This document shows positions 906 through 55,873 of a stretch of DNA of 64,000 nt, piece after piece. The notes beneath the pieces are model-generated. The model worked only from the letters and a program-made list of their open reading frames with translations, searched no databases and was not told the origin of the DNA. The stretch comes from Octopus vulgaris (taxonomy: Eukaryota). Location of the stretch: NCBI GenBank assembly GCA_951406725.2, contig OX597827.1:25978001-26042000 (forward strand), given 5' to 3'. How positions within the stretch are numbered: the stretch's first letter is position 1; the number at the start of each line of letters is the position of its first letter. Both the position numbers and the translations under genes were made by a program.

Positions 906-1090
906 TAGTAGTGACAGCAGTACTATTTATGCGAATTAGAAATTTCTCAACAGAATTTTTAGAATTTCCATTTTTGAAACAATATTCGTGACCACCAAAC
1001 AACGCACAAACACAAGCACGATTGCACACACGCATACACAATACATAAATGTACATAGATGCATACACAAACGTTTATATACATATATAC

Positions 1091-1127
<37 letters not shown>

Positions 1128-1162
1128 TATATAATTTCTGTATGCATCTATGTATATATATA

Positions 1163-1202
1163 TAGGCGCAGGAGTGGCTGTGTGGTAAATAGTTTGCTAA
1201 CC
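1163..1202 (+). mobile_element. SINE family A, 5' part of the tRNA head, interrupted by a 2.3-kb insertion
   Basis: AGGCGCAGGAGTGGCTGTGTGGTAAATAGTTTGCTAACC matches the heads of uninterrupted copies (19396, 51839, and 26468 on the minus strand). The SINE resumes at 3498. Confidence 0.9.
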
Positions 1203-1430
1203 TACTTCCCATGGGTCTTTGTTGTCAGTGTACGCATGCGTCATTGTGTTGTGCACTGAAGAAGATAGCCGCAGTGTTTAGCCTGCCAAAAAGAAGCTGC
1301 TGCAAGGTAGGACTTTTGTCTCTTGGGTCCAGTGGGGGTTGTTGTCTGTGGTTATAATTTTTACAAAAAATGAGTCCTCACTGGATTCAAAATGTTGGTC
1401 TGCTTGCGGTGCAGCAATACTGTTCAAATC

Positions 1431-1707
1431 AAGTGAAAAGTTTTTGTCTCATTGTGAGAAGTACAGTTTTGGTGCGTATCCTTCAACCAAAAGTTGTTCA
1501 CTTTTAATAGTGTATGTTTTTACAACAACGTTTACCATTAATTGGAAAGCTGTATTTCAAGTGTTCACATTAAGTGAAAAGTGTTTCTCATTGTGAGAAG
1601 TATAGTTTGGTGGCGTATCCTGCCACCAAAAGTCGTTCGCTGTTTTTTAAATAGTGTGTATTTGTGCAACTATGTTTACCAATAATTGGAAAGCTGTATT
1701 TCAAGTG
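1431..1707 (+). repeat. Two tandem ~135-bp monomers in the 5' UTR of copy 1
   Basis: 1431-1563 and 1572-1707 both run AAGTGAAAAG...CTCATTGTGAGAAGTA...GCGTATCC...ACCAAAAGT...AATTGGAAAGCTGTATTTCAAGTG. Confidence 0.9.
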
Positions 1708-1937
1708 GAGCATTCAAGGTTTTAAACGAAGTTCCATAGCGCTTGGAGTACCTGAATACCCAGAAGATATTTTACTGTATTTTTTTGAACTGTTGTTTTC
1801 TTCTTCTTTTGTGACTTTCTTATTGAATTGTTTGTTCTTTTTTTCTTTTTCCCTTTTCTTTCCTTTTGATTGCACTCTTTTCTTTTTGAAATTTGTGAAA
1901 TATTGTTTTGGACTTTTTTTACTTTTTGATTTAAAAC

Positions 1938-3195
1938 ATGGCAAAAAAATACGGATAAGATTGTAGAGTGGCAGATTGTCTTTAAGAGTGGCTCACACAG
2001 CAAGAGGAGAGGACGATGGTGTTGAGAACGTATTCGAAGTTGCTCGATATCAATGCCGTCTTCTCCAAGAATATAGTTGAGCAGGATTTGGCGGGACATC
2101 TGCCAACCATTAAGGATATCTCTAGGGGTGTCAAATGTGCAACGGTGTGGTTGCTGTTTGACACCCCAGGAAAGGCTCGCAGTTTTGCGAGCCAGCCCGG
2201 TGAGGGTGAAGAAATTTTGTTTCTTCCCACTTATTGTGGGAAAAAATTGACGAAGGCTTGGGTCTGCGGTTTACCACCCGGAATTGAATCCCAGTGGATA
2301 GAAGATGATATCCGTCGGGGTCTGGGTGGCAACGGAGCCAGGCTCCTTAATATGAAAATTCTTCCTGCGGCTGATTGGGTTGGGTCAAAACAGCTTTTGA
2401 CCCTGTGCACCCAATCAGCCATGAATCTGGTTATGCTAGATTTTTTGAAAATGGCCGGGTGCAGGTACTCGGATACTCTTGAGGGTCGCCCCCTCTAGGT
2501 GTCATCGGTGCCTGGAGCCTGGCCATATAAAGAAAAACTGTCCTTAGGAACAAAGCAAAGTCCTGGAGTAGTTGATTGAAACCTCTGTAGAAGAAGGAAC
2601 GAAGGCGGCCGAGGAGACGGAGGACTCCTCAAACAAGGGCCGCAAGTGGAAGAAGGTGAGCCACAATGGGTGCTCACTGAAGGACCCTAGGGATGAGGGA
2701 GGGGAGGCGAATCTCCCTAACACTGAGGAGACACACTCTCCCTGAGTTGAGAAAAAAGAGGAAGAGGAAAAGAAACAGTACATTGCCGGCAGTCGGTGAC
2801 ATAGCACCGGTATGTCCCGGAACCTTGCCGGTAGGGTTGTGCCAACGGCAGAGGAAGAGATAATGTTGGGGGGAATTGTGCCGCCAACGGTAGAATTGAC
2901 TACCTCGAACCCGGAAGGAGGGGAACCATTGGTCTTCTTCTACAGAGGCGGAGAGGTAGAAAAGGTGCTGGAAAAGCACTATAAGGGAGTACCTTTAGCC
3001 TGCACACAGGATCCCGAATGGCCTCTGCAGACAGCTGTGGTGGTCATATCGGTGTCTGTGGGGTATAGGCTGCAGGGATTCAATGAGGAATATCGCATAT
3101 GGCCGGGCGACGCCGGCTCAGATCCCGCCTTGGTCTTGAATGAGGAGTGGGGAATGGTGGAGTATACGCGCACAAGCGATGTTGGGGAGGGATAG
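1938..3195 (+). pseudogene. Decayed ORF1/Gag-like nucleic-acid-binding protein with CCHC zinc knuckle
   Basis: ATG at 1938 aligns with the copy-2 start. ORF 2016-2498 is followed, after a frameshift, by CHRCLEPGHIKKNC (CX2CX4HX4C), a K/E-rich linker, and C-terminal ORF 2812-3195. Confidence 0.75.
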
Positions 3196-3497
3196 TGACA
3201 AGAAATTGAAAAGCCTCGGTGTTATAATGTTTATTGTATAATGGTTAATGTTTATTGCATGTTATTGTGCTTAAGGGGCTTAACGCCAATTCTTAAATAG
3301 ACTATTACTCCAAAAATTGTAAAACTGAGGTAAGAGGTTTTTTTCTATGAAATAATGTTTTAAACAATCAAAAATTCGACGGCCGTTTTTTGTCTTCTCC
3401 CATTAATATCATCCTTTTCATCATTCACCTCATCAATGTCTTTCTCCCGCCCGCAAGATACTCTGTATCATGCCTTTATGGCAAAATCTTTGAAGTA

Positions 3498-3637
3498 AAG
3501 TAGTTTGCTTACCAACCACATGGTTCCGGGTTCAGTTCCACTGCGTAGCATCTTGGGCAAGTGTCTCCTACTATAGATTCGGGCCTACCAAAGCCTTGTG
3601 AGTGGGTTTGGTAGACATAAACTGAAAGAAGCCCATC

Positions 3638-3640
<3 letters not shown>
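3498..3640 (+). mobile_element. SINE family A, resumed part (B box and core)
   Basis: AAGTAGTTTGCTTACCAACCACATGGTTCCGGGTTCAGTTCC...TCTTGGGCAAGTGTC...GAAAGAAGCCC continues the head at 1163-1202. Confidence 0.9.
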
Positions 3641-3675
<35 letters not shown>

Positions 3676-3910
3676 CATATTAATAAATAAAACATATGCA
3701 TATATATATATACATATATGTACGTACCAACCTCTACATGCGAAAAGCAAATCAAATAAAATTTGAGATCTTTTCGCAGAGGGGTAAAAATGGTAAGAAA
3801 AACAGGACAGTAACGACAGTACAAAATATATGTTTTATTTATTAATATATTATATGACGGAACGCACGCATCCATTTCTAAGTAACATTGTTCTTGATAT
3901 ATCTATATCT

Positions 3911-4035
<125 letters not shown>

Positions 4036-4386
4036 TGTGTGCAGGGATGTGAATGCGAATGTGAAACCTACGGGAATGTTTCTGGCAGTATAAAATGGGA
4101 AGCTAAATATTACGTAAGATGTTATCACGATACCATGATTACATTTATTTAGAACCTTTTAAATACTCTCTCAAACAGTATTTTATAAAGGCAATCGTGA
4201 AATGTGTGACCTCGCCAAATAATGAGCTAGCAAACTTCTCTAGACACACAGTCATATATACGCACGAACAAATATATGTATATATATGTATATATATATA
4301 TGTACACATATATATATATATGCATATATAATATATACATATATATATATATATATCAATAAGATATATATGGATATATACATACC

Positions 4387-4441
<55 letters not shown>

Positions 4442-4449
4442 GCATATAT

Positions 4450-4628
4450 GTGTACTGGTTTAAAAAACGTGAACAGAATAAATAACAAGAACATTAAGAA
4501 AGCTAAAACATGGAAAATGAACTTTTGCGGGACAATGAACGAAACAAATAGAGAAACGAGACAAGCAACATAAAGAACAATCCCTTCATCAGTTGTCCCC
4601 TGTTTTATCTTCTCTACGTTTCAAAGGA
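4450..4628 (-). mobile_element. Probable PLE terminal fragment with a degenerate hammerhead, between (TA)n tracts
   Basis: Minus strand reads CTGATGA-A-GGGA...TCCC-GCAAA, with a further GAAACGTA motif upstream. (TA)n lies on both sides. Confidence 0.4.
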
Positions 4629-4629
4629 A

Positions 4630-4677
<48 letters not shown>

Positions 4678-5284
4678 CGTTTTGGGATTTGGTTTGCAAG
4701 ATTCTTTATGTGAGTGTGTTGAAGCATATCTTGCTGTGTCTAGGGGGAGTCATTTTCTTTTAGTGCCTTATTTCTTAATACACTCACCGGTTTAGTTTCC
4801 AATCATATCCTTCTTCATTTTTCCTTTTCTTCCTTTTTTATTACTTTTATTATTTAGTTACTCATATATATAATGTTTAAAATTAAAGTTTTCATGGGAG
4901 ACTTTAAAATGTAGTATCAAAATTTTGTGCTGTGGGAGTGTATGTAGTGTGCTTTGAGAGCAGGTTCCCCACTGAAAGCTACGGGGTGTGGAGGGGTCAT
5001 CTACGTTACTGCAATTTAGCCGCAGGATTTACATCAGGAATTCCTCGGTGCACGTTCAGTATATTTTAAGTAATCGATAGGGAAGCCAGAATGCGCTGGA
5101 TGCTTTATATAATTCAACCATCCTTTTGGCTGACACCTTCACTGCTCCCTAGTGGCTGCAATTCCCTTATATCAGTCCTCAATCACCAGGGAGCAGCATA
5201 GATATAAGACTAAACGATCGTCACACGAAATAAAGCTTATTGTACAATCTGCTTTCCTTAATTGTTTAACATATATATACATAC

Positions 5285-5330
<46 letters not shown>

Positions 5331-5351
5331 ATGTATATACATATACATGTA

Positions 5352-5378
5352 TGGCTGTGTAATAAGTAGCTTGCTTAC
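5352..5378 (+). mobile_element. SINE family A head fragment, broken at the same site as the copy at 1163
   Basis: TGGCTGTGTAATAAGTAGCTTGCTTAC overlaps the start of ACTTCCGG, the 5' end of element copy 2. Confidence 0.75.
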
Positions 5379-6800
5379 TTCCGGTTACCCGGAATGCAAC
5401 ACTAGTTGGTCTGGACTATTACAGTGAGAAGACGTGAGTTTTGACTCCGTGAAGAGAAAGAACAAAAAGAAAAATTGTCAATTATGGCTCGCTATAGCGA
5501 GCAAAAATTTTGTGTTCTCATCACCATAACGGTGAATTGAGAATTTTTGCGTGAAAATTCTTGGTGTGGCTCTTTTTCGCCAAATAATTTGTAAATTCTA
5601 GTGGGCGTATCTCGCTAGAAAAGTGGAATTTTTCTGAACTGGAGTACTTCAAGAATAACCCAGACTATTGGATTACCTGTTGGAGTATTATACAAAGGAT
5701 TCCCTATCTGTGCTATTTGTGAGGTTTTTCTTTTATTTTTTTCCCTTCTATTTTTTTCTTTCTTTCTAAACTTTGGTTTATTCTTTTCATTGTTTTAATT
5801 TCAGTTTCCTTTCCTTTTTTTTTATTTTGCTTTATTTTTATTCGGTATTAATTTTTTGGCGGACTGTTTTTTGAACTACTTTTGAACTGTTTTTTTGGGG
5901 GGGGGGCATGGCAGAGAAGGAACTTAAAAAGAAGAACTCTGTCTTGGGGTGGGAAATTAACCCGCCTAAGCAGTGGTTAAAAGATATGGAGGAGAGAACG
6001 ATGGTGGTTAGAACTTATTCTAAAGTTCTTGATTCCATCACCGTCTTCCCAAAACCAGTTATAGAAAATGAACTGAAAGACTATATGTCCTCTGTGAAAT
6101 ACATATCACGTGGTGTCAAACTTGCAACCGTATGGTTGCTGTTTGACAACCGGGAAAAGGCTCGCACATTTGCGAGTCAGCCTTTAGAGAGTAACTAAAT
6201 TCTGTTCCTCTGTCGTACTTAGGGAGAAAATTAATAAGAGCCTGGGTATGTGGGTTGCCCCCAGGCACCGAGGCGGGTTGGATTGAAGATACCATTCGAC
6301 GGGGAGTGGGGGATAGTGAACCCAGGCTCTTAAATGTAAGGGTATTGCCGGCGGTCGATTGGGAAGGGTCAAAAGCGATTTTGACCCTGTGAACCACATC
6401 GGCCGCAACAGATCTGTTTTTTCCAGAGTTTTTAAATGGCTGGCTGTAGGTATCCGGTGATACTTGAGGGACGTCCACCCAAGTGTCACTCGTGCCTGCA
6501 GCCAAACCACATTAAACAGAATTGCCCCCAGGACCATGAAAGATTCTGGAACAGTCACTCGATGACACCTCCCCTACCCGGTCAAATGGAGAGATGGATG
6601 TGGTTTAGGAGGCTGAAGCCTCCTCAACACAAAAAGGATTAAAAAGGCAGAAGGCGAGCAACAATAGTTGCGTACCGAACGGCCCTAAGTCTTCGAGAGG
6701 TGGGGGATAAACTCGGACAAAGTGGAAGAGCTTCACTCTCCCGAAGTCAGGAAGAAAAGAAAAAAAACAAAGAAGAACGGGTCGCGCAGGGGCGAGATGA
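5377..6800 (+). mobile_element. ORF1-type retroelement, copy 2 (divergent subfamily, 3' end not recognisable)
   Basis: Starts ACTTCCGG. The 5' UTR shares GGCGTATC and GGAGTAC...CCCAGA motifs and a T-rich tract with copy 1. The protein is homologous to copy 1, and similarity fades near 6780. Confidence 0.75.
5908..6780 (+). pseudogene. Decayed ORF1/Gag-like protein with CCHC zinc knuckle (copy 2)
   Basis: MAEKEL...RTYSK...ISRGVKLATVWLLFD...FASQP, then AWVCGLPPG in a shifted frame, then MAGCRYPVILEGRPPKCHSCLQPNHIKQNCP. Manual count gives 37/61 identities to copy 1 over MV.RTYSK-FASQP. Confidence 0.8.
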
Positions 6801-7216
6801 TGTGCTTATTGGTTTAGAGAACTCAATAAGCTAAGGGTCGCTGACAATAGTTACCCTAAATTTTAATAAGAATTGCTTCTCAAATGTGATAGCATTTTAT
6901 AAAGAAACTTTGGCAGCGTCGAATGAGTTGGTATTTAACAGGCAAGTGAGTAAATTTCGAAGGTAGCATAACTGTAAATGCGGTGGGGATTAGGTTGGGT
7001 ATTTATTCTTAGAAGGCCGGAAAATGTTGCCAGTAGTCGGCATACGTAAAAGAAGAACTGAAATAAATGGTTGAAGAACGAATATATAGTGTGTGTTTAT
7101 TTTTGATTTAGCAAACAAAAAAAAAGAAAAAAAGAAGACAATCTCGAACTATAACAATATCTGTTTCAACACGCGGTTTTACATGAGAAATCTTGCAACA
7201 CAAATTTATAAACGTG

Positions 7217-7250
<34 letters not shown>

Positions 7251-9258
7251 CGAATGAGTGGACAGACCAAAGAAAATGCCCCTCATCACATTTGTTGGAA
7301 GTTGTATGCATTACTGAAAACAGTTTAATATGGATTCCATGCTACTTCAAGTTTCGAAGGCCATAACCGAGCCTTTCTCGTCAGAATGGTAATAATCCGA
7401 ATAACTGGAGAGATGCAGGAAGTACGAGATGGCCACCGATAGATGGGCTGCGATTAGTCAAGGAAGGTCAGGTGATGTAATCGTTGGTAGTATTGCTAAC
7501 TAAGCGACAGCAGTTACATCGGAGAAAAGAGTTTCTTTGGCCCCGTGGCTGGACATAAAATTTGTTGCAACCGTTCGTCCAGCCAAGAGATTTTGTGGGG
7601 GTTTTGAGGCTACGAGCTTCGGTTCATGTTTAAGCATGTGCGCGTGTATGCATGCATGAGTGTGTATCCCTATGTGCGTGTAAACTTATGTATGTGTGTA
7701 TGTATTTGTGCGGATGTGATATACACATGTGCGTATGTATACGCGTATTTACGTGTGTGTATTTGCGCGAGTGCGTTTGTGCGTGCGTATGTGCATGTGT
7801 TTGTGTGCTTGTGCATATTATATGCCTGAGCGTGTATAATATTTGTGTGTGTGCGTGTGTGTGGAAATGAAAATAGATGGCTATGAATATTGCTGTAGTG
7901 CAGCTTAAAGCCAGCTCTGCATGAGCAGACTAGAATCGAAGATGCTTTAATCATCAAGATCCATCTTTTTTAAACAATCTTAGACGAACATCAATCCTTC
8001 GTCTTTGGCCAATATATTTAGGAGATCACATCACGTATAGAATCCCATCAAAAGCAACTGTCATTATACTTTCCACTTAGATTTCCAATTTAGGCCAATG
8101 GAGACAATGGATATTATCCAAGAGTCTTGTTCGGGACCTACACCTGGATCTCGTTCCGGTTGGTTTAGTTTCAATCATCCATTTTACGATTCCTTCCTGC
8201 GACAACCGAAATACCGGACTTCTGGCTTTTCAGTGGGGAAAAGTTGAACCTTGACCTGGAGAAAATCCCTGGTCTCCGAACTACGTAACCTGGTGAATAA
8301 CATTATCCTAGAGACGCTTTTGAGAGGACCGTGTTCTGGCCAATTACATTAGTGATCGCAAAGTTAGCCGCCTGTTAAAATTCCCGTTAGGATTTGATTT
8401 GGAAAGTTCTTGGTTGTTATTTCTAGTAGATGGGGCAACCAGATTGTGTCTCCCTTCCTGATCGGTAGGAAGGTGACAATATAGTAAGAATTTTACATTT
8501 GTCAATCAGGGGTCCATACATAAGAACAGTGTTGTAACCTGAAGTATCTCGTCATCTTGTATCATTTCCAGTGTTGAACGTTCAGACTGAGGTTTCACGC
8601 TCTACAACTTATCGAGGTGAACAAGTATATAATATGAGAATAGTACGTGCAATAGTTAAAAGACTTGCTATTTGTTATTCGGAGCTATCGCTATCACATT
8701 GAATGGCAATCTAATCGATAAAACATAAGCTTGAACGAGAAGGTCGGTATAATAGAATTAATCAATTTATCTGTTTTTATCGAAAAGCATTAACACAACT
8801 GAGAGGTAATTGCATACTTGGGAATAGGATGTAGAATAATCAATCGAACTATTTGAATTGTCTGCCAATGATATGTCCTCTGTCCATAGATAATCGATAG
8901 ATGTGTCGGAACAAATAATGAGAAGGAAAAGAAGGATGTAGTGTAGATAAATTGAGCAGAGTTTAAACAGAACAACATCTATATCAAATATAAATGTTGA
9001 TATAGGCGCATCCTTATTTGTGATGTTGATAAACGTAAAATGCAATTTGTATGTCAAATAACAAGAAAATGGATGACTGCCATTGTTGGAAACGCGCAGT
9101 AAATTTATAAGTTAGGGCCGAAATAATTTGTAAATATTTCTACGATGGATTGAAATTTTATTAAATATCTCCTTTTTCGAATGTTTATCAGATTTTGTAT
9201 TTCCGAGATATTGGTTGTGTTTCAATGTGCGAAAAAATGTAACCAAAGACTATATTCG

Positions 9259-9848
9259 TTTCTACTCTAGGCACAAGATCTGAAATTTTAGGGGAGGGGG
9301 CCAGTGGATTAGATCGACCCCAGTACTTAATTTATCGACCCCGAAAGGATGAAATGCAAAGTCTTCCTCGGCGGAATTTGAACTCAGAATATAAAGACAA
9401 ATGAAATACCGATAGGTATTTCGCCCGGCGTGCTAACGTGTCTGCCAGCTCGCCGTCTTAAATAATCTTCTCTACTCTAGGCACAAGGCCCGAAATTTTT
9501 GGGAAGGGGGCCAGTCAATTAGATCGACCCCATTATGCATCTGGTACTTAATTTATCGACTCCGAAAGGATGAAAGGCAAAGTCGACCTCGGCAGAATTT
9601 GAACCCAGAACGTAAAGACATACGAAATACGTATTTCTTTACTATCCACAAGGGGCTAAACACAGAGAGGGCAAACAAGAACAGACAAACGGATTAAATC
9701 GATTATGTCGATCCCAGTGCGTAACTGGTACTTATTTAATCGACCCCGAAAGGATGAAAGGCAAAATCGACCCCTGCGGAATTTGAACTCAGAACGTAAA
9801 GACATACGAAATACCCCTTAGCATTTCACCCGGCGTGCTAACGTTTCT
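9259..9848 (-). mobile_element. SINE family B cluster: monomer (9259-9457) plus dimer (9468-9848)
   Basis: Minus strand shows the tRNA-like head GGCGAGCTGGCAGA...GAGTTCAAATTCC and the body GCCTTTCATCCTTTCGGGGTCGAT (Meta-domain-like, from memory) three times. Confidence 0.9.
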
Positions 9849-10029
9849 CCCTCTTGAATATTTTAAATATTATTTTGATATAAACTCTACGTTGACTTTC
9901 TGTATATTGTTCACTTCCTGCTTAAATATCTTGCTGTTACTCAATGTAATGTGACCTGTCTTTTTGTTTATACACATAGGCGTCAAAAGGCTGTGTCATA
10001 AGAAGTTTACTTCCCAACCACGTGGTTCC

Positions 10030-10099
10030 GGGCATATTGCGTAGTGGTTAAGAGCACGGCTACTAACCCCAAATTCCGAGTTCGATTCCAAGCAGTGAT

Positions 10100-10131
<32 letters not shown>

Positions 10132-10133
10132 GG

Positions 10134-10170
<37 letters not shown>

Positions 10171-10190
10171 GGATAATAATAATGATGATG

Positions 10191-10231
<41 letters not shown>

Positions 10232-10420
10232 TATAATAATAATAATAACATCGAAAATACTTTAGGAATGAGAACCTAGGTTCGAAATTTCCCCAAGACA
10301 CATGATGAAGGCTGGACGGTATATCAGCCGAAACGTTGTGTTAACAACAAAGAAGATGAGGACAAATATCCGTCAAATGTAAATAATGTAAATAATTCCT
10401 CATCTCTTAAGTATAGAACT
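10030..10420 (+). mobile_element. SINE family D: tRNA head, (TAA)n tract and hammerhead-containing tail
   Basis: A box TTGCGTAGTGG, B box GAGTTCGATTCC, (TAA)n at 10103-10248, hammerhead motif at 10298-10341. Confidence 0.75.
10298..10341 (+). ncRNA. Minimal type I hammerhead ribozyme motif (C3 mutated to A)
   Basis: ACAC-ATGATGA-A-GGCTG...CAGCC-GAAAC-GTT-GTGT. Stem I is ACAC/GTGT, stem II is GGCTG/CAGCC, and stem III is the palindrome ACGT. Confidence 0.65.
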
Positions 10421-10789
10421 GTCTGGCATTTTGAGCAAGTGTCTTCTACTACAGCTACGGATCGGCCAAAGACATGCGAGCAAATTTGGTAGACAGAAAC
10501 TGAAAGAAGCCCCGCGTGTGTGTATATATGTGTGTGTGTGTGTCTATGCTTGTCCCCCACCACCACCGCTTGACAACCGGTGCTGGTCTGTTTACGTCCC
10601 CGTAACTTAGCGATTCGGTAAAAAGAAACGTACAGAATGATTACCAGACTAAAAAAAAACTGAAAGCCCTGGGGTTGATTCGTTCGACTAAAATTCTTCA
10701 AGAATGTGCTCCAGCATGGTCACAGTCTAATGACTGAAGCAAATTAAACACATTTACAAACGTATATTTATATATTTGTAAACGGTGGG

Positions 10790-13429: not shown

Positions 13430-14874
<1,445 letters not shown>

Positions 14875-20142: not shown

Positions 20143-21418
20143 TCACGTCATCCCATAACTTCTGTTCGATTTTTCCTTTTAAAAATTGAATGTAATTTAA
20201 TAGTATTTTAGAATGTCTAATGGAATTAAAGATTATTTTTAGGCATTTGTGTACATTTAAACTAATTAAATATTATTTTACAGAATAATAGAATTAAAAT
20301 TTATTTGATTAAAACCCTTTCTAACTTGGCAGTACCCAGTAAAGCATTTAAGGCACATAACGCTTTATGAGTACAAAAAAGGAAACCCTGCAGCCGAAGC
20401 GACTCGAAACATACTCAGTTTATGGGAAAGAATGCTTGAATGAAAGAACTTGCAGAAGATGGTTTGCAAAATTCACAAGTGGAGATTTCAACCTTGAAGA
20501 AGAAGATCGAACAGGACGTCCAGTTGAGTTTGATGATAAGCTCTTCGAGGCATTACTTGAAGAAAATCTTGCATTATCAGTTGAAGAATTGGCAATAAAG
20601 CTTAGTTCAAACCATACAACTATTCATCGTCATCTTCAACAACTTGGAAAGGTTCCTAAATTGGAAAATGGGTATCTCATGAATTGTCCGAAAGCAAACG
20701 CAAATCTCGAATTGACATCTGCTCTTCTCTCCGTTCTCGCGAACTCATTTCACCCTTTGTTGATAGACTTGTGACTGGTTATGTAAAATGGAACTTCTAT
20801 CAAAATGGTAAACGTCGTAAACAGTGGCTTGGTAAAGGGGAAAAAACTCAACCACAAGAGAGAAGGGAACTTCATGGGAAAAAGGTTCTTCTCTCTCTCT
20901 GGTGGGATTGCAAAGGAGTAATTCACTTTGAATTGTTACCACCTAATGCAACAATCAATGCTCAAGTCTACTGTCATCAATCAGAGCGTTTGAACCAAGC
21001 TTTGAAGAAACAAGACCCGCTTTAGTGAATAGAAAAGGAGTGATGCTTTATCAGGACAATGCGGGACCCCACGCTGCAAAGATCACAGTAGATCGAAGAG
21101 ATTGCTTGGGAAAAAATTCCTCATCCATCTTATTCTCCCGACCTTGTTAGACAACCATTTGTTTTGTAGTGTACAGAATCATTTGGGGGATATAATTTTC
21201 GCAAGCCAGGAGGAGGTCGAAACTGACATTTCAGAGTTCTTCGCTTTGAAACCAAGAGAGTTTTACATTGATGGGATTAAAAGGCTTGTAAATAGACGGA
21301 ATGAAGTCATAGATAATCAGCAGGGAAAGTACATCGATGATTAAATTTCAATTAAATGTAACATTTGATCACTTGTTTTCTTTATTCAAAATTCGGACAG
21401 AACTTGTGGATGACCTGA
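20143..21418 (+). mobile_element. Full-length (1276 bp) decayed mariner DNA transposon
   Basis: Imperfect ~30-bp TIRs (TCACGTCATCCCATAACTTCTGTTCGATTTTT / AAAATTCGGACAGAACTTGTGGATGACCTGA) with TA on both sides, enclosing a transposase. Confidence 0.95.
20367..21344 (+). pseudogene. Mariner (DD34D) transposase pseudogene
   Basis: HTH region RTCRRWFAKF.SGDFNLEEEDRTGRP, then VTG(Y)VKW with the first catalytic D lost, LSLWWDCKGVIHFELLP, QDNAGPH and HPSYSPDL. Several frameshifts. Confidence 0.93.
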
Positions 21419-23174: not shown

Positions 23175-23549
23175 GCCAGCAATTTTGGGGGAAGCGATGC
23201 GTTAATTGCATCGACCCCAGTGTTCAACGGGTATTTAATTTATCGACTGCGAAATGATGAACGGTAAAATCGACCTCGGCGGAATGTGAACTGAGAACGT
23301 AGAGACTAGCGAAATACCCATTTCTTTACTACCCACAAGGGGCTAAACACAGAGAGGACAAATAAGGACAGACAAACGGATTAAGTCGATGTAATCAACT
23401 CCAGTGCGTAACTGGTACTTATTTAATTGACACCGAAAGGATGAAAGGCAAAGTCGACCTCGGTGGAATTTGAACTCAGAACGTAGCGGCAGACGAAATA
23501 CCGCTAAGCATTTCGCCCGGCGCGCTAACGTTTCTGCCAGCTCGCCGCC
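23175..23549 (-). mobile_element. SINE family B dimer
   Basis: Intact head GGCGGCGAGCTGGCAGAAACGTTAGCG and two bodies, joined at the same junction as 9468-9848. Confidence 0.9.
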
Positions 23550-23588
23550 TAAAAATAACAGCGTTGATGATGCTGATGACGCTGATAA

Positions 23589-26073: not shown

Positions 26074-26468
26074 TTCTTTTACTTGTTTCAGTCATTTGAC
26101 TGCGGCCATGCTGGAGCACCGCCTTTAGTCGAGCAAATCGACCCCGGGACTTATTCTTTGTAAGCCCGGTACTTATTCTATCGGTCTCTTTTGCCGAACC
26201 GCTAAGTGACGGGGACGTAAACACACCAGCATCGGTTGTCAAGCAATGCTAGGGAGACAAACACACCAACACACACACATACACACACACATATATATAT
26301 ACATATATACGACAGGCTTCTTTCAGTTTCCGTCTACCAAATCCACTCACAAGGCATTGGTCGGCCCGGGGCTATAGCAGAAGACACTTGCCCAAGATGC
26401 CACGCAGTGGGACTGAACCCGGAGCCATGTGGTTGGTTAGCAAGCTACTTACCACACAGCCACTCCTG
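26074..26468 (-). mobile_element. SINE family A, full-length copy
   Basis: Head, CORE-like CTTGGGCAAGTG, internal (TA)/(TG) tract and tail ...AAATGACTGAAACAAGTAAAAGAG. Nearly identical to 33297-33759. Confidence 0.95.
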
Positions 26469-33296: not shown

Positions 33297-33510
33297 TCTC
33301 TTTTACTCTTTTACTTGTTTCAGTCAGTTGACTGCGGCCATGCTGGAGCACCGCCTTTAGTCGAGCAACTCGACCCCGGGACTTATTCTTTGTAAGCCCA
33401 GTACTTATTCTATTGGTCTCTTTTGCCGAACCGCTAAGTGACGGGGACATAAACACACCAGCATCGGTTGTCAAGCTATGCTAGGGGGACAAATACAGAC
33501 ACACAAACAT

Positions 33511-35132: not shown

Positions 35133-36893
35133 TATGAAAAGGCACAAAACTACAGTCAACAAAAAATAATGAGGGAACTAAAATCCATATTAAACCCATA
35201 CAAAGCAGGGCTCACCGACAAAGAATATGATTATATGACCAATTTCACAAGCAAAACCAGCCAATTCTACGGTATACCTAAGATCCACAAAAGTGAGAAA
35301 ATAAGCAACGCATGCAAGATAGCTACAGACAAAATAATTAAAGTCCCTAATCCTAATGACCTCAAATTGAGACCCATAATAGCAGGTCCCGCATGCTAAA
35401 CCCACCGCCTCAGTAACTTTTTAGACACCCTGTTAAAACCACTCCTAAAACATGTCAAAAGCTATATAAGGGACGACTTAGATATGCTCAATCACCTACC
35501 GAATACTATAAACAAAAACACCATACTGGTATCCTTCGATGTAGTCAACCTCTACTCCAATATCCCCCACAACCTAGGACTAGAGGCAATCCAATTCTGG
35601 CTAGAAAATCACGCCAACGAACTACCACATCGCATCAAAAAAGAATTCGTGATAGAAGGGGTTAAATTCATCCTGGAAAATAACTTTCGCCTTCAATGAC
35701 AACTTCTACCGACAAAAATCGGGGACTGCGATGGGTACACGAATGGCCCCCTCCTTTGCCAACCTAGTCATAGGATATCTAGAGATCAGTCTGTATCGTA
35801 AGGTTCTAGAAAGATATGGCAGCCCTTTCTCCATCTACATAGAAAACAACTGGAAGAGATATCTAGATGACTGTTTCATCCTTTGGCATAAAAATATAGA
35901 AAAACTCATAGAATTCCAGGAAATTTTAAACGGACTGGACGTAAACATCCAATTCACGATGGAATATAGCCAGCAACAACTCCCCTTAATATAATAGAAA
36001 CAGACATATATTATAAGCCTACAGACTCTAAGCAATATCTTCCATTCAATTCATGCCACCCCAGACACACCAGGATGAATATCCCCTTCAACCTAGCAAA
36101 AAGGGTATGCACTATAGTCTCGAACGCAAACACCAGAGACACACGACTATAAGAACTAAAAGATACCCTTATCACCAGGAACTATCCACCTTCACTTATT
36201 GACAAGTGCATTCAACGTGCCCTTCAACTTAACATCAAGGAACTGAGACATCCCAAATCAAAGAAAAACTTACAACCAAAAGCCTTACCATACATCTCCA
36301 CACACAACCCTCTCAATAACGAAGCCTTCGGCACCATCCTCCACAACATATCCCTCCTAAAAAAAGACCACAGAATGAACACAATCCTCCAAACACACAC
36401 GATCATAAAAAGCAAGAGACAGCCTAAATCCATGAAAAGTCTCCTAACACAAGCCCGAATTCACTCTTCAACACAGAAGCCGACAGTAAAAAAATGTGGA
36501 AGACCCAATTGCGGGATATGCGACTATCTAATTGAGTTCTCCTTCAAACAGGGACAACGGTTTACAGTGAAAAGCAACTTCACATGTGCTTCGGAGAACC
36601 TAATTTACTCACTAACCTGCTCCGGGTGTCAAGAGCAGTACATAGGCCAAACAAAAAATAGTTTGCGTAAACGAATGGCCCTGCACAGATCCCAGATAAA
36701 AATTCCCCAAAACAGAAAAATAGCTTTTAGCCAACACATAGATACTTGCGCCAACCAAAAACACCAAGCTTCATGATTTTCCCCCTCTACCAATTTAGGG
36801 ACGACACAACCTCGAGACAACGAATAAGTAAAGAAACTCTCTTTATTGCAAAATACAGGCCACTTCTTAACCGGTCTACGACAAACAATTAAT
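35132..36893 (+). pseudogene. PLE reverse transcriptase / GIY-YIG endonuclease pseudogene
   Basis: FYGIPKIHK, LRPIIAGP, SFDVVNLYSNIP, GTAMGTRMAPSFANL, RYLDDCF, TDIYYKPTD, Cys motif CGRPNCGIC, NLIYSLTC..C.EQYIGQT. A few stops, frameshifts and small deletions. Confidence 0.95.
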
Positions 36894-41149: not shown

Positions 41150-41925
<776 letters not shown>

Positions 41926-44067: not shown

Positions 44068-44195
44068 TAGGTAGGTACAATAAATTCCGGATGAATACTT
44101 GATAAATGTAAGCACCTGTATATGCCAGCTAGTAGCATAGTTGAGAGGATATATGTATCAAATGAAATAAATGAAAAACAGGACACAAAGGATGT

Positions 44196-44290
44196 TGCGG
44201 TACGTATGTTTCGAGCGTTATAGAACAACTTATTCTTACATCAATGCATAATCAACATAACAGATAGTTCAAAAGCCCTCTTCAGCCGCA
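44196..44290 (-). ncRNA. Type I hammerhead ribozyme, left arm
   Basis: Minus strand TGCGG-CTGAAGA-GGGC...GCTC-GAAAC-ATAC-GTA-CCGCA. Confidence 0.8.
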
Positions 44291-44480
44291 TGCAATTGCT
44301 ACACCAAAGAAAACGATATGGACGATTTGGCTTGGAGTTTAATAATACCATGTACGCCTATGAAGATTTACAAACATACTTTCCCAATGATACCCCGTTT
44401 ACCTACCATTATAAACAATACCAAATGTTTTTTCTCAAACCTTTCATAATGTGATACAAGTCTTTGGTGTAGCAATTACA

Positions 44481-44575
44481 TGCGGCTGAAGAGGGCTTTT
44501 GAACTATCTGTTATGTCGATTATGCATTGATGTAAGAATAAGTTGTTCTATAAAGCTCGAAACATATGTACCGCA
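44481..44575 (+). ncRNA. Type I hammerhead ribozyme with intact core, right arm
   Basis: TGCGG-CTGAAGA-GGGCTTT...AAAGCTC-GAAAC-ATAT-GTA-CCGCA. All core nucleotides and G10.1-C11.1 are present, and stem III is the palindrome ACATATGT. Predicted cleavage after A44570. Confidence 0.88.
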
Positions 44576-44614
44576 ACATCCTTTGTGTCCTGTTTTTCAT
44601 TTATTTCATTTGAT

Positions 44615-44650
<36 letters not shown>

Positions 44651-45139
44651 GTGTGCGTGTGTCTGAGTGTATACATATGTAAGCATGTGTGAATGTATAT
44701 CTTTACGTTGCGATTTGTTCTCTCTCTCTCTCTCTCTCTCTCTCACACGCACACTTGAAAACTGGTGTTGTTTTGTTTACATCACCGTAACATTAGCAGG
44801 CAATGCTTTTTGTTCTTGAGCAAAACACTTCATTTACTCCAGTTCACTCATCTGGTAAAGGTAATCTTTCAACAGGCCAATGTCCTGTCCACGGAGATAT
44901 AAATACGCTAGAATAACCGAGGAAGCAGCGCCATGCTTCTTGTGGAGAATTGTGGGCTCACCATAAACTAAAAGACTTTGCAGTGGATCACTGTCCTGTA
45001 AAATTTTTAATTTCACTGGAATCTTCAGGAAAATCAACTGACGTACTTCAATAATCAAAATTCCATGAATAGTGCTGTTGAGTAATTGATGTTTGCAATG
45101 CATCTAGTGTGAGGTCTGAGATGCTTACACTGTCTATAA

Positions 45140-45322
45140 TGGTTTCAAATTTTGACACAAGGCCAGCAATTTTGGCAAGGGTTTAAGTCAATTACATCGA
45201 CACCAGTCATCAATTGGTACTTATTTTATCCACTCCAAAAAATGAAAGCCAAAGTGGATCTCGGCGGAATTTTGAACTAAATAAGTCACAGCATGTTAAA
45301 AATTCTGCTGGCTCGCTGCCTT
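45140..45322 (-). mobile_element. SINE family B, degenerate copy
   Basis: Plus strand GGCCAGCAATTTTGG...GGTACTTATTTTATC...CTCGGCGGAATTTTGAACT...CTGCTGGCTCGCTGCC. Confidence 0.75.
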
Positions 45323-47840: not shown

Positions 47841-47899
47841 CATATATATATATATGTGTGTTTATATGTTGATATATATTAATGTTTCCATGTTTATCC

Positions 47900-48070
47900 C
47901 CCTACAATTGCTTGACAACCGATGTTGTTTTGTTTACGTGCCTGTAACTTGGCGGATCGGCAAAAGAGAGCGATTGAATAAATATCAGGTTACCAAAGAA
48001 TAAGTCGATGTGTTCGGCTAAATACGGTGCTCCAGCATGGCTGCAGTCAGATGAGTGAAGCAAGTAAAAG
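47900..48070 (+). mobile_element. SINE family A 3' half
   Basis: GCTTGACAACCGATG...GGCAAAAGAGA...GGTGCTCCAGCATGGCTGCAGTC...CAAGTAAAAG. Confidence 0.85.
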
Positions 48071-50540: not shown

Positions 50541-51667
50541 ACAATATCTGTGTATCACGATTTCCGGGTTAGTTCACTTCATCATAAAAAAATAATCGTT
50601 CGGCTAGAGGTGGCGCTGCCAAAGTACTGTTACTGAATATCTCCGTTGTGAGATTTAAAAATAGTAATTTTCTAATTTATAGATACATGCTCTTGCACAC
50701 AAATACGCACATATATATTAACTTCTTTGTTACGCCACTGAATCTCAAAGGCGCCTCCTAATCGATTGAATTATTATTCTATTGCTTAACTCATATTATT
50801 GTATGTAGCTGAGACAGTTTGTTGTAACGTGTGAGAGTTTTAACAATTTGGTATAATCCGAATTTAATTTCATTAAGATTCGAAGAAAAAATTACCAAAC
50901 CAGAAAATTCTGAAATTGTTCGCATCTGCATAATTCTTACAATACAGTCATTAACTCCCATGAAAACCATACTGGCAATTCTCCTATGTATATTAATACC
51001 TCTAAATCTGCACTGTTCTCAGGTATTTCATTAGCAAGTATATTAATTAATTTGCTTTACTTTTCAAAGCATCTTATAAAACTTTTGCGTCGGCGTTTTG
51101 CTTTCCACTCCAGTAACTGTTCATGTCATCGTTTTAGGTTTTTGACTATCAAACAATGGAAGCCGAACTGGTAAGTATGGAACGGTAAAGTAAAATTATT
51201 TCGATATAACATCATAGCTCTTTCGTTTAATTGGTTTGAAATTCACGGCACGTAGTTTGAACTAAACTTAAGACGTGATTGTGCTTTGTCTTAACTTTTA
51301 TCTTATATAACTAACTTTTGCTACAAAATTACTGTAATAAAAAAAATAAAGAAACATGTATAGGAATAAATTTAAATTAATATGTTCCGGAAGATAGTAA
51401 GAGTCAATTTATGTATATATTATAGGACAAGATAACCAGACAATTTGAGTGCGTGGAATAACTGCTAGGCTGGTTAAAACGGCTTCAGGGATATAAATTT
51501 TGCTTATGGTAATGTGTTTGAGAAAACTATATTTTTATCACTTCGGAAGATCGAAAGTACCTGAGGTTTCATGGAGAGAAGGATTGGTTAATGCATAAAG
51601 TTTTAATATTTCATGAAGATAAAGCTGTGAGCTATCAGAGTCCTTAGCATCCTGGGGGAAATGATGA

Positions 51668-51832
51668 GCTGCATTTCGTCCGTCTTTACGTTCTGAGTTT
51701 AAATTCTGTTGAGATCGAATTTACCTTTCCAGGGGATTCGATAAAACCCGTGCTGGTTGCTGATTGGGTTCGGTGTTAGCGACTTGCAGCCGTCCCCGAA
51801 ATTGCTGGCCTTTGTGCCAAAATTTGAAACCA
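51668..51832 (+). mobile_element. SINE family B fragment
   Basis: CATTTCGTCCGTCTTTACGTTCTGAGTTTAAATTCTG...GAAATTGCTGGCCTTTGTGCCAAAATTTGAAACC. Confidence 0.75.
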
Positions 51833-51838
51833 ACATAT

Positions 51839-52670
<832 letters not shown>

Positions 52671-55325: not shown

Positions 55326-55494
55326 TGTGTGTATGTATGTATGTATATAAGTATGTATATATATGTATGTATGTGTGTATATATGTATGTATATATGTGT
55401 GTACGTATGTGTGCAAACATAAATACAAACGTACACAGGCATAAACACTCACAAGTATGTATATAGTTATATATATATATATAAATATACTTTT

Positions 55495-55873
55495 AATTGT
55501 TTCAGTCATTTGGCTACGGCCATGCTGGAGCACCGCCTTTAGTCGAACAAATCGATCCCAGGACTTGTCCTTTGTAAGCCTAGTACTTATTCAATCGGAC
55601 TCTTTTACCGAACCGCTAAGTTACGGGGACGTAAACACACCAGCATCGGTTGTCAAGCGATGTTGGGGGGGGGGGACAAACACAGACACACAAACACACA
55701 AACACATTTATATATACATATACATATATACGACGGGCTTCTTTTCAGTTTCCGTCTACCTAATCCACTCACAAGGCTTTGGTCGGCCCGAGGCAATAGT
55801 AGAAGTCACTTGCCCAAGGTGCCACCCAGTGAGACTGAACCCGGAACCATGTGGTTGGTAAGATACTTACCAC
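55495..55873 (-). mobile_element. SINE family A, near full-length copy
   Basis: Collinear with 26074-26468. Confidence 0.93.

Follow-up and report, generated by a model that had tools for sequence, protein, structure and literature searches.

Non-autonomous LINEs in which ORF1 is present have been described in the Jockey clade (HeT-A), the CR1 clade (Ag-Sponge) and the L1 clade (HAL1), and the list in PMC5786205 names no Tx1-derived or molluscan member. HAL1, or 'half-L1', is a mammalian L1 derivative that encodes only the ORF1 protein, ORF1p (PMC5753468, PMC3627910, PMC5786205). ORF1 proteins of type I are assigned to plants and non-mammalian animals (PMC5203782). Target choice in LINEs follows the endonuclease, and many elements of the Tx1 clade prefer a site in another repeat: Tx1L inserts in Tx1D, Keno in U2 genes, and Kibi and Koshi in microsatellites (PMC4494074). 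The non-autonomous SINEU riders share the target of their partner, and SINEU-3 inserts in Mariner-N4_AMi (PMC4494074).

The locus described here lies in a window of 64,000 nucleotides of Octopus vulgaris DNA that is AT-rich and microsatellite-rich and carries SINEs together with Penelope-like and mariner fragments. Copy 1 of the element is a 2,295-bp insertion on the forward strand (1203-3497) that splits the head of a SINE. It is bounded, as a reading of the sequence alone had proposed, by a target-site duplication of 16 bp whose left (1187-1202) and right (3498-3513) copies agree at 14 of 16 bases, and the flanks proved to be the two halves of one SINE. The 5' end at 1203 is matched by a diverged copy in a sequencing contig (record 10) that starts exactly there. 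Self-comparison revealed neither LTRs nor terminal inverted repeats in copy 1. The 16-bp duplication and the lack of LTRs support a non-LTR reading.

Copy 1 begins with a 5' UTR of 735 bases (1203-1937) that opens with TACTTCC, as copy 2 does (see below), and has a T-rich end. It contains a tandem duplication of about 143 bp with 82% identity (1421-1707, found by self-comparison) and, searched in three forward frames, gave no match in Pfam under E 0.05. A decayed ORF1 follows, running from an ATG at 1938 to tandem stops at 3193-3198. Its 418 codons agree with the single reading unit of about 420 codons that was originally proposed, and they are broken by three frameshifts (near 1943, 1985 and 2493) and four internal stops (2545, 2569, 2743 and 2797). 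Copy 1 is dead, and the description 'complete' holds for its two ends only.

Between the stops and the right duplication is a 3' tail of 299 bp (3199-3497) that has no stable fold (fold z 0.54). A tail of this length ending TTGAAGTAAA had been reported from the sequence; the length is right, and the two A at the end of TTGAAGTAAA are part of the duplication. Copy 1 ends GAAGTA, followed by the duplication, while the family end is GAAATA followed by the AA of the duplication. Because A is read at 3495 in 61, 58, 81 and 56 contigs of four DNA runs, the family end carries an AATAAA that runs into the duplication. The end of copy 1 has no poly(A) tail, which may have been short from the start or may have eroded. 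No reverse transcriptase (RT) or endonuclease match to Pfam was obtained from copy 1 in the forward pieces and frames tested or in three reverse frames, and 299 bp after the stop leave no room for ORF2, as had been claimed. A search of Rfam over 1000-7500 returned only microsatellite-driven microRNA matches below the cut-off.

A paralogous element, copy 2, occupies 5377-7050 on the same strand and starts after a SINE head at the site used by copy 1. Its 5' UTR is unlike that of copy 1, its ORF1 begins at 5908, and its zinc knuckle is at 6484-6525. The two copies share 67% DNA identity over 2004-2552 of copy 1. The right duplication of copy 2 was not found up to 12,000, and its 3' end is undefined. 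The DNA behind it (6742-9992 in all forward frames, and from 7864 in reverse) yielded no RT or endonuclease match that would indicate an ORF2. Both elements start with TACTTCC (1203-1209 and 5377-5385), where copy 2 reads ACTTCCGG. We take ACTTCCGG to be an ETS-type motif such as occurs at the 5' end of several L1-type elements.

A comparison of copies 1 and 2 over 138 codons, a check that the sequence-only reading had suggested, gave a dN/dS of 0.16 and a pN/pS of 0.35 (95% bootstrap 0.26-0.46), with 39, 27 and 73 differences at codon positions 1, 2 and 3. ORF1 has thus evolved under purifying selection between the two lineages, and the dN/dS of 0.16 may reflect selection in autonomous ancestors. 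When family bases were compared with window bases, all 14 of the rows entered were non-synonymous; these rows were preselected and did not include row 1981 or four rows in the linker, so the count is given no weight.

A profile of the two window copies matched 25 proteins at E values up to 0.001 among 1.84 billion. Four of these matches were not taken as homologues, which leaves 21 of the 25 as aligned family members, and P0002, P0005 and P0015 (repetitive) were left out of the alignment. P0001 and 21 other matches align over the N-terminal half. Names were found for six of the ten relatives looked up, and all six are from Octopus (O. sinensis, O. bimaculoides and O. vulgaris). The best match, P0001, is O. 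sinensis XP_029652367, a protein of 281 residues that is 68% identical and is co-linear with copy 1 through the knuckle to a K/R-rich tract, up to about residue 273. Other relatives are 21-32% identical to P0001 and are mostly fragments. A Transposase_22 match was absent in the 25 members scanned, and a word-index search with the N-terminal half among longer proteins found nothing. The O. sinensis annotation lists P0001 as a gene with three isoforms (XP_029652367-9), and in the protein a phenylalanine replaces the first knuckle cysteine. It could be a transcribed copy or a candidate for domestication.

The AlphaFold model of P0001 has a mean pLDDT of 73, with a block of 89-97 over residues 11-100, and it places two RRM-like domains before the knuckle. 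The first (residues 14-101, corresponding to 1986-2237 in copy 1) best matches the La RRM, with Z 8.4 and an rmsd of 2.7 over 81 aligned residues. The second (residues 101-186, 2238-2492) matches RRM3 of Mip6 with Z 8.4 and an rmsd of 2.4 over 75 aligned residues, and many further RRMs. Proteins with tandem RRMs also rank first in a Foldseek search of the model. The CX2CX4HX4C knuckle noted earlier is at 2500-2541 and matches Pfam zf-CCHC at E 0.003, below the curated cut-off. It is followed by a charged low-complexity linker (2542-2830) that is disordered in the P0001 model and ends in the K/R-rich tract, where the likeness of copy 1 to both copy 2 and P0001 ends. The forecast of an RRM-like fold plus knuckle was therefore borne out twofold in the model, which indicates that the copy 1 protein is a type I ORF1 with two RRM-like folds and a CCHC knuckle.

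Look-alikes in the ESM Atlas are CCHC proteins and clusters of the ZCCHC3 type, in which RBD1 and RBD2 precede a knuckle (0.88-0.92). These ZCCHC3-type clusters (PF23057/PF23058) share with the octopus protein the order of tandem RRM-like domains and then a knuckle. However, their scores are 0.88-0.90 with a TM of only 0.39, and there is no Pfam match to PF23057 or PF23058 by sequence.

Further copies are present in public sequencing data. Words of the element occur in 13 of the 24 listed runs, which come from six studies and carry four organism labels. Contigs from four of the 24 listed DNA runs were aligned to the element at 80% likeness, with the repeat at 2750-2782 left out exactly where P0001 and copy 2 diverge. 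The results shown comprise 40 of 523 variant rows, 15 of 323 joints, 24 of 2,291 loose ends and the 32 longest pieces; among the joints listed, SINE flanks crowd out internal joints. The 'reach' of a contig given below is the distance to the end of its aligned part, as deduced from contig record 25, although the text of the tool gives it as the contig end. All 30 bins of the element were covered in each of the four runs. Divergence from the window exceeds 5% in 31 of the 32 longest pieces shown (median 13.8%). These pieces are therefore other copies, and the element belongs to a multi-copy family. None of the 32 pieces shown spans the whole element. Related DNA was not found in metagenome or viral contigs.

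A burst of SINEs and LINEs in O. vulgaris is placed at a JC distance of 0.065 (PMC13282606). If 14% pairwise divergence corresponds to about 7% from the centre, the family would roughly date to this burst, on an estimate that is biased by the 80% likeness cut-off.

The host SINE allows the insertion site to be defined. Its 5' part, a tRNA-like head (1165-1202), was aligned with ten uninterrupted copies in the window, and its 3' part (3498-3640) is 74-89% identical to other window copies. Among the joints listed, empty-site contigs connect 1187, 1188 or 1192 directly to 3500-3514. We take TGGCTGTGTGG at 1175-1185 in the head to be an A-box-like motif and GGTTCAGTTCC at 3529-3539 in the body to be B-box-like. 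ARAGORN found no tRNA gene and the fold of the head had a z of 0.0, so the label 'tRNA-derived' comes from the box motifs alone. Another copy of this SINE, at 9980-10530, is split at about 10032-10418 by a short repeat with a long TAA tail, a nested insertion that uses a SINE position other than that of copy 1.

Copy 2 starts at most 1-5 bases from the SINE position of copy 1, on the same strand and directly after the head, a coincidence of sites that the sequence-only reading had not noted. The two copies share this site despite their different 5' UTRs and a third of ORF1 bases differing. Simple arithmetic with about 12 SINE copies in 64 kb puts the chance of such a coincidence near 7e-4. A third insertion is given by record 25, a contig copy with 42 mismatches and 10 gaps whose alignment starts in the SINE head at 1167 and continues to 1494. 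Contigs that carry family bases at 1214 reach 43-58 bases, and those with family bases at 3495 reach 47-51 bases, in each case through the SINE part to the end of the aligned stretch; the latter may represent an allele of the window's own locus. Against these three insertions at one SINE position stands one apparent exception, record 10, whose 26 letters before 1203 do not align to the SINE and which is one case against strict targeting. The family probably prefers this site in the SINE head. Since copy 2 and the contig copy start at the same SINE position, these data suggest a partner that is Tx1-like and site-preferring.

Beyond the linker, copy 1 carries a stop-free C-terminal segment of 131 codons (2800-3192). 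The other two forward frames have six and five stops over the same stretch, and a run of this length arose in 41 of 5000 simulations. Tens of contigs per run carry the segment in the four DNA runs, so it is family-wide and its last 127 codons are probably coding. No homologue was found in Pfam, in word-index searches against longer and similar-length proteins or in the Atlas; a single-sequence AlphaFold prediction was uninformative (pLDDT 34.5). The segment is missing from P0001 and copy 2. An unrecognized domain had been delimited at 2812-3195, and that part of the proposal stands insofar as the stretch found no homologue in these searches and probably encodes protein. Its start does not, because the methionine at 2812 is probably a product of chance, brought into frame by a frameshift as the copy decayed. 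It is more likely that reading after 2745 runs through the neighbouring K/R-rich frame, as in copy 2 and P0001. A one-base insertion at 2833 is present in some copies (6, 3, 5 and 7 contigs, about a tenth of the depth). This lineage may have gained the segment as a domain, or else the segment is the terminal part of another sequence that was joined on at the K/R tract.

The explanation that best accounts for these observations, to which we assign a probability of roughly two in three, is that copy 1 is a defunct member of a family of non-LTR retroposons in Octopus that encode ORF1 only, are non-autonomous and most likely descend from a Tx1-type LINE. RNA polymerase II would transcribe such an element from its own 5' UTR, and its ORF1p, with two RRMs and a knuckle, would coat the RNA in cis while ORF2p is borrowed in trans from an autonomous partner. 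The partner's endonuclease would nick the bottom strand of the SINE head at about 5'-CTACTT/A, leaving a T-ended 3' end that could pair with the A-rich end of the RNA. The duplication would then arise through target-primed reverse transcription and a second nick at a distance of about 16 bp. The insertion would fall between the A and B boxes and break one of very many SINE copies, which would make the SINE head a safe landing place. A partner LINE was not found in the window: beyond 10 kb, five of the 79 open stretches have a Pfam match, and all five are Penelope-like or mariner. There is also no match to the 3' tail elsewhere in the window.

A different history, in which most of the family consists of autonomous Tx1-type LINEs that have ORF2, and copy 1 belongs to a minor, internally deleted sub-lineage, is improbable but deserves the most attention among the alternatives. 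O. vulgaris is reported to have 80 L1-Tx1 families, 13 of them recently active (PMC13282606). The deletion joint would lie either near 3282-3340, with the early tail being the worn start of ORF2, or at 2750-2782, with the C-terminal segment being the end of ORF2. Both seams are bridged thinly or not at all by contigs. Depth has a bottleneck at 3245-3324: position 3299 has 2-14% of the depth at 3444 and 12-88% of the depth at 3218. Records 15, 24 and 32 span 3025-3282 and then leave the alignment for 80, 169 and 227 letters unlike the window; they are probably one locus, a paralog seen in three runs. At the other seam, the K/R tract is where copy 2 diverges and where P0001, with 281 residues, comes to its end.

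Several results weigh against a deletion at these points. A depth dip of similar size occurs inside ORF1 at 1981 (15-34% of the depth at 2076), where it sits at a private indel, so a dip is no sure sign of a joint. The C-terminal segment has no match to the end of an ORF2. By eye, 3255-3350 of copy 1 and 6835-6915 of copy 2 look like the start of an APE endonuclease, which would favour a deletion. A relic of this kind was sought at 3240-3413 and 6835-7050, and PDB sequences and Pfam gave only chance matches, which lends the likeness no support. The ORF body, the C-terminal segment and the tail have similar median bin depths, on both sides of both seams, and depth is lower only 5' of about 2120; with 4 kb of ORF2 in between, a much deeper tail would be expected. 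Such a profile fits a short element that is truncated at its 5' end or has exchanged it, but the support is weak, as contig depth does not measure copy number. In all four runs depth rises four- to six-fold at about 2120, and several long pieces start at 2104-2151. This position may be a preferred point of 5' truncation, or it may mark a shorter or 5'-swapped subfamily.

Whether copies other than copy 1 pass from ORF1 into the same tail bears on a narrower alternative, namely that a full-length LINE inserted at this locus and, in that event or later, lost its interior in a one-off deletion. A non-window base at 3218 occurs in 22, 6, 29 and 21 contigs of the four runs; these contigs extend 65-70 bases to either side, past the stop, and cover 3148-3288. 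Those with a non-window base at 3299 (5, 3, 3 and 10) reach about 40 bases each way (3258-3340), and row 3448 reaches 98 bases each way in one run. The crossing contigs with non-window bases come from three organism labels. Several copies thus share the junction of ORF1 and 3' tail, as expected of an element that spreads as a unit and as the sequence-only reading had proposed to test, here with 3 to 29 crossing contigs per run. Because other copies have contigs that continue past the stop codon into the 3' tail, a one-off deletion, which had been named in advance as the outcome that would overturn the ORF1-only reading, is very unlikely, even though no second complete copy is seen whole among the contig pieces shown.

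Equally hard to sustain is an origin as a gag-only LTR or other non-LINE element or as a retrocopy of a host ZCCHC3-like gene, for which the nucleocapsid-like zinc knuckle, the ZCCHC3-type Atlas clusters at 0.88-0.90 and the three annotated isoforms of P0001 might speak, but which conflicts with the lack of terminal repeats, a duplication of 16 bp rather than 4-6 bp, RRM rather than capsid folds, and dozens of diverged copies together with many Octopus relatives at 21-32% identity, mostly fragments, as expected of a mobile family.

The preferred reading, a family of ORF1-only retroposons, invites comparison with HAL1, to which the element had initially been likened. The two are alike in encoding ORF1p only, in their target duplications, in a presumed need for ORF2p in trans and in having an ORF1 under apparent selection. 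They differ in that HAL1 has a type II ORF1 (Transposase_22, with a coiled coil, one RRM and a CTD), whereas the octopus element has type I RRM-RRM-CCHC architecture, an extra C-terminal segment and an apparent fixed target. L1 insertions carry a poly(A) tail, and copy 1 has no A-tail. The element therefore works like HAL1 without being a HAL1 member, since ORF1 type and tail differ; what survives of the original label is a multi-copy, constrained lineage that probably has ORF1 only. The element shares its way of life with HeT-A, which is telomeric, as well as with Ag-Sponge and HAL1, and fits the category that these form.

Elements of the Tx1 clade provide a further parallel: they too have a type I ORF1 and insert at a fixed site in another repeat, as the octopus family appears to do, and non-autonomous riders inherit the target of a partner. 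The octopus family differs in that its target is a SINE head and its rider encodes its own ORF1, and, as the element has no RT, its placement in the clade is tentative. A type I ORF1 is consistent with the Tx1 clade, for which it is typical as it is for plant L1 elements, and also occurs in other clades. The ORF1-only habit and the fixed-site habit are each known separately, and we found no joint description. An ORF1-only or SINE-targeting element in cephalopods was not found in the literature searched by title and abstract, and Repbase or the Zenodo library of PMC13282606 may already hold the family.

Other repeats are scattered through the window. Penelope-like fragments at 14380-14757 (reverse strand) and 35400-36773 (forward strand) are 69% alike and match GIY-YIG (E 3.5e-7 and 4.4e-4) and RT (E 7.8e-4); a stretch at 41191-41529 (reverse strand) resembles them by eye and has no Pfam match. 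A decayed mariner transposase lies at 20361-21341 on the forward strand (HTH_48, E 2.7e-7; Transposase_1, E 1.1e-26). At 44154-44617 there is a 157-bp inverted repeat, 97% complementary with arms 150 bases apart, that is MITE-like or a fold-back element. A second dispersed family has internal tandem units (9250-9850, 23176-23554, 45134-45278 and 51629-51832). A third (10546-10748, 26080-26254, 33316-33493, 47891-48070, 52499-52656 and 55490-55672) often lies directly 3' of the host SINE.

A more elaborate scheme can be offered only tentatively. A Tx1-derived ORF1-only family, the first from molluscs for which we found a description, might home to one position in the commonest octopus SINE, between its A and B boxes, with an ORF1p that gained its C-terminal domain after the loss of ORF2 and possibly uses it to recruit the ORF2p of the partner. 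Such an arrangement would be a three-tier parasite composed of rider, LINE and SINE target.

No principle is changed by these findings, as both ORF1-only riders and site preference have already been described. If the preferred reading is true, the ORF1-present category would be extended to a Tx1-type lineage and to molluscs, and the SINE head would join the known targets of site-preferring LINEs, with the C-terminal domain as a further object of study. Riders that carry only ORF1 offer a natural way to test why ORF1p has to act in cis. Here the target would be fixed and countable, with empty and filled sites in very many SINE copies, so that insertions of the rider and of its partner would be directly comparable.
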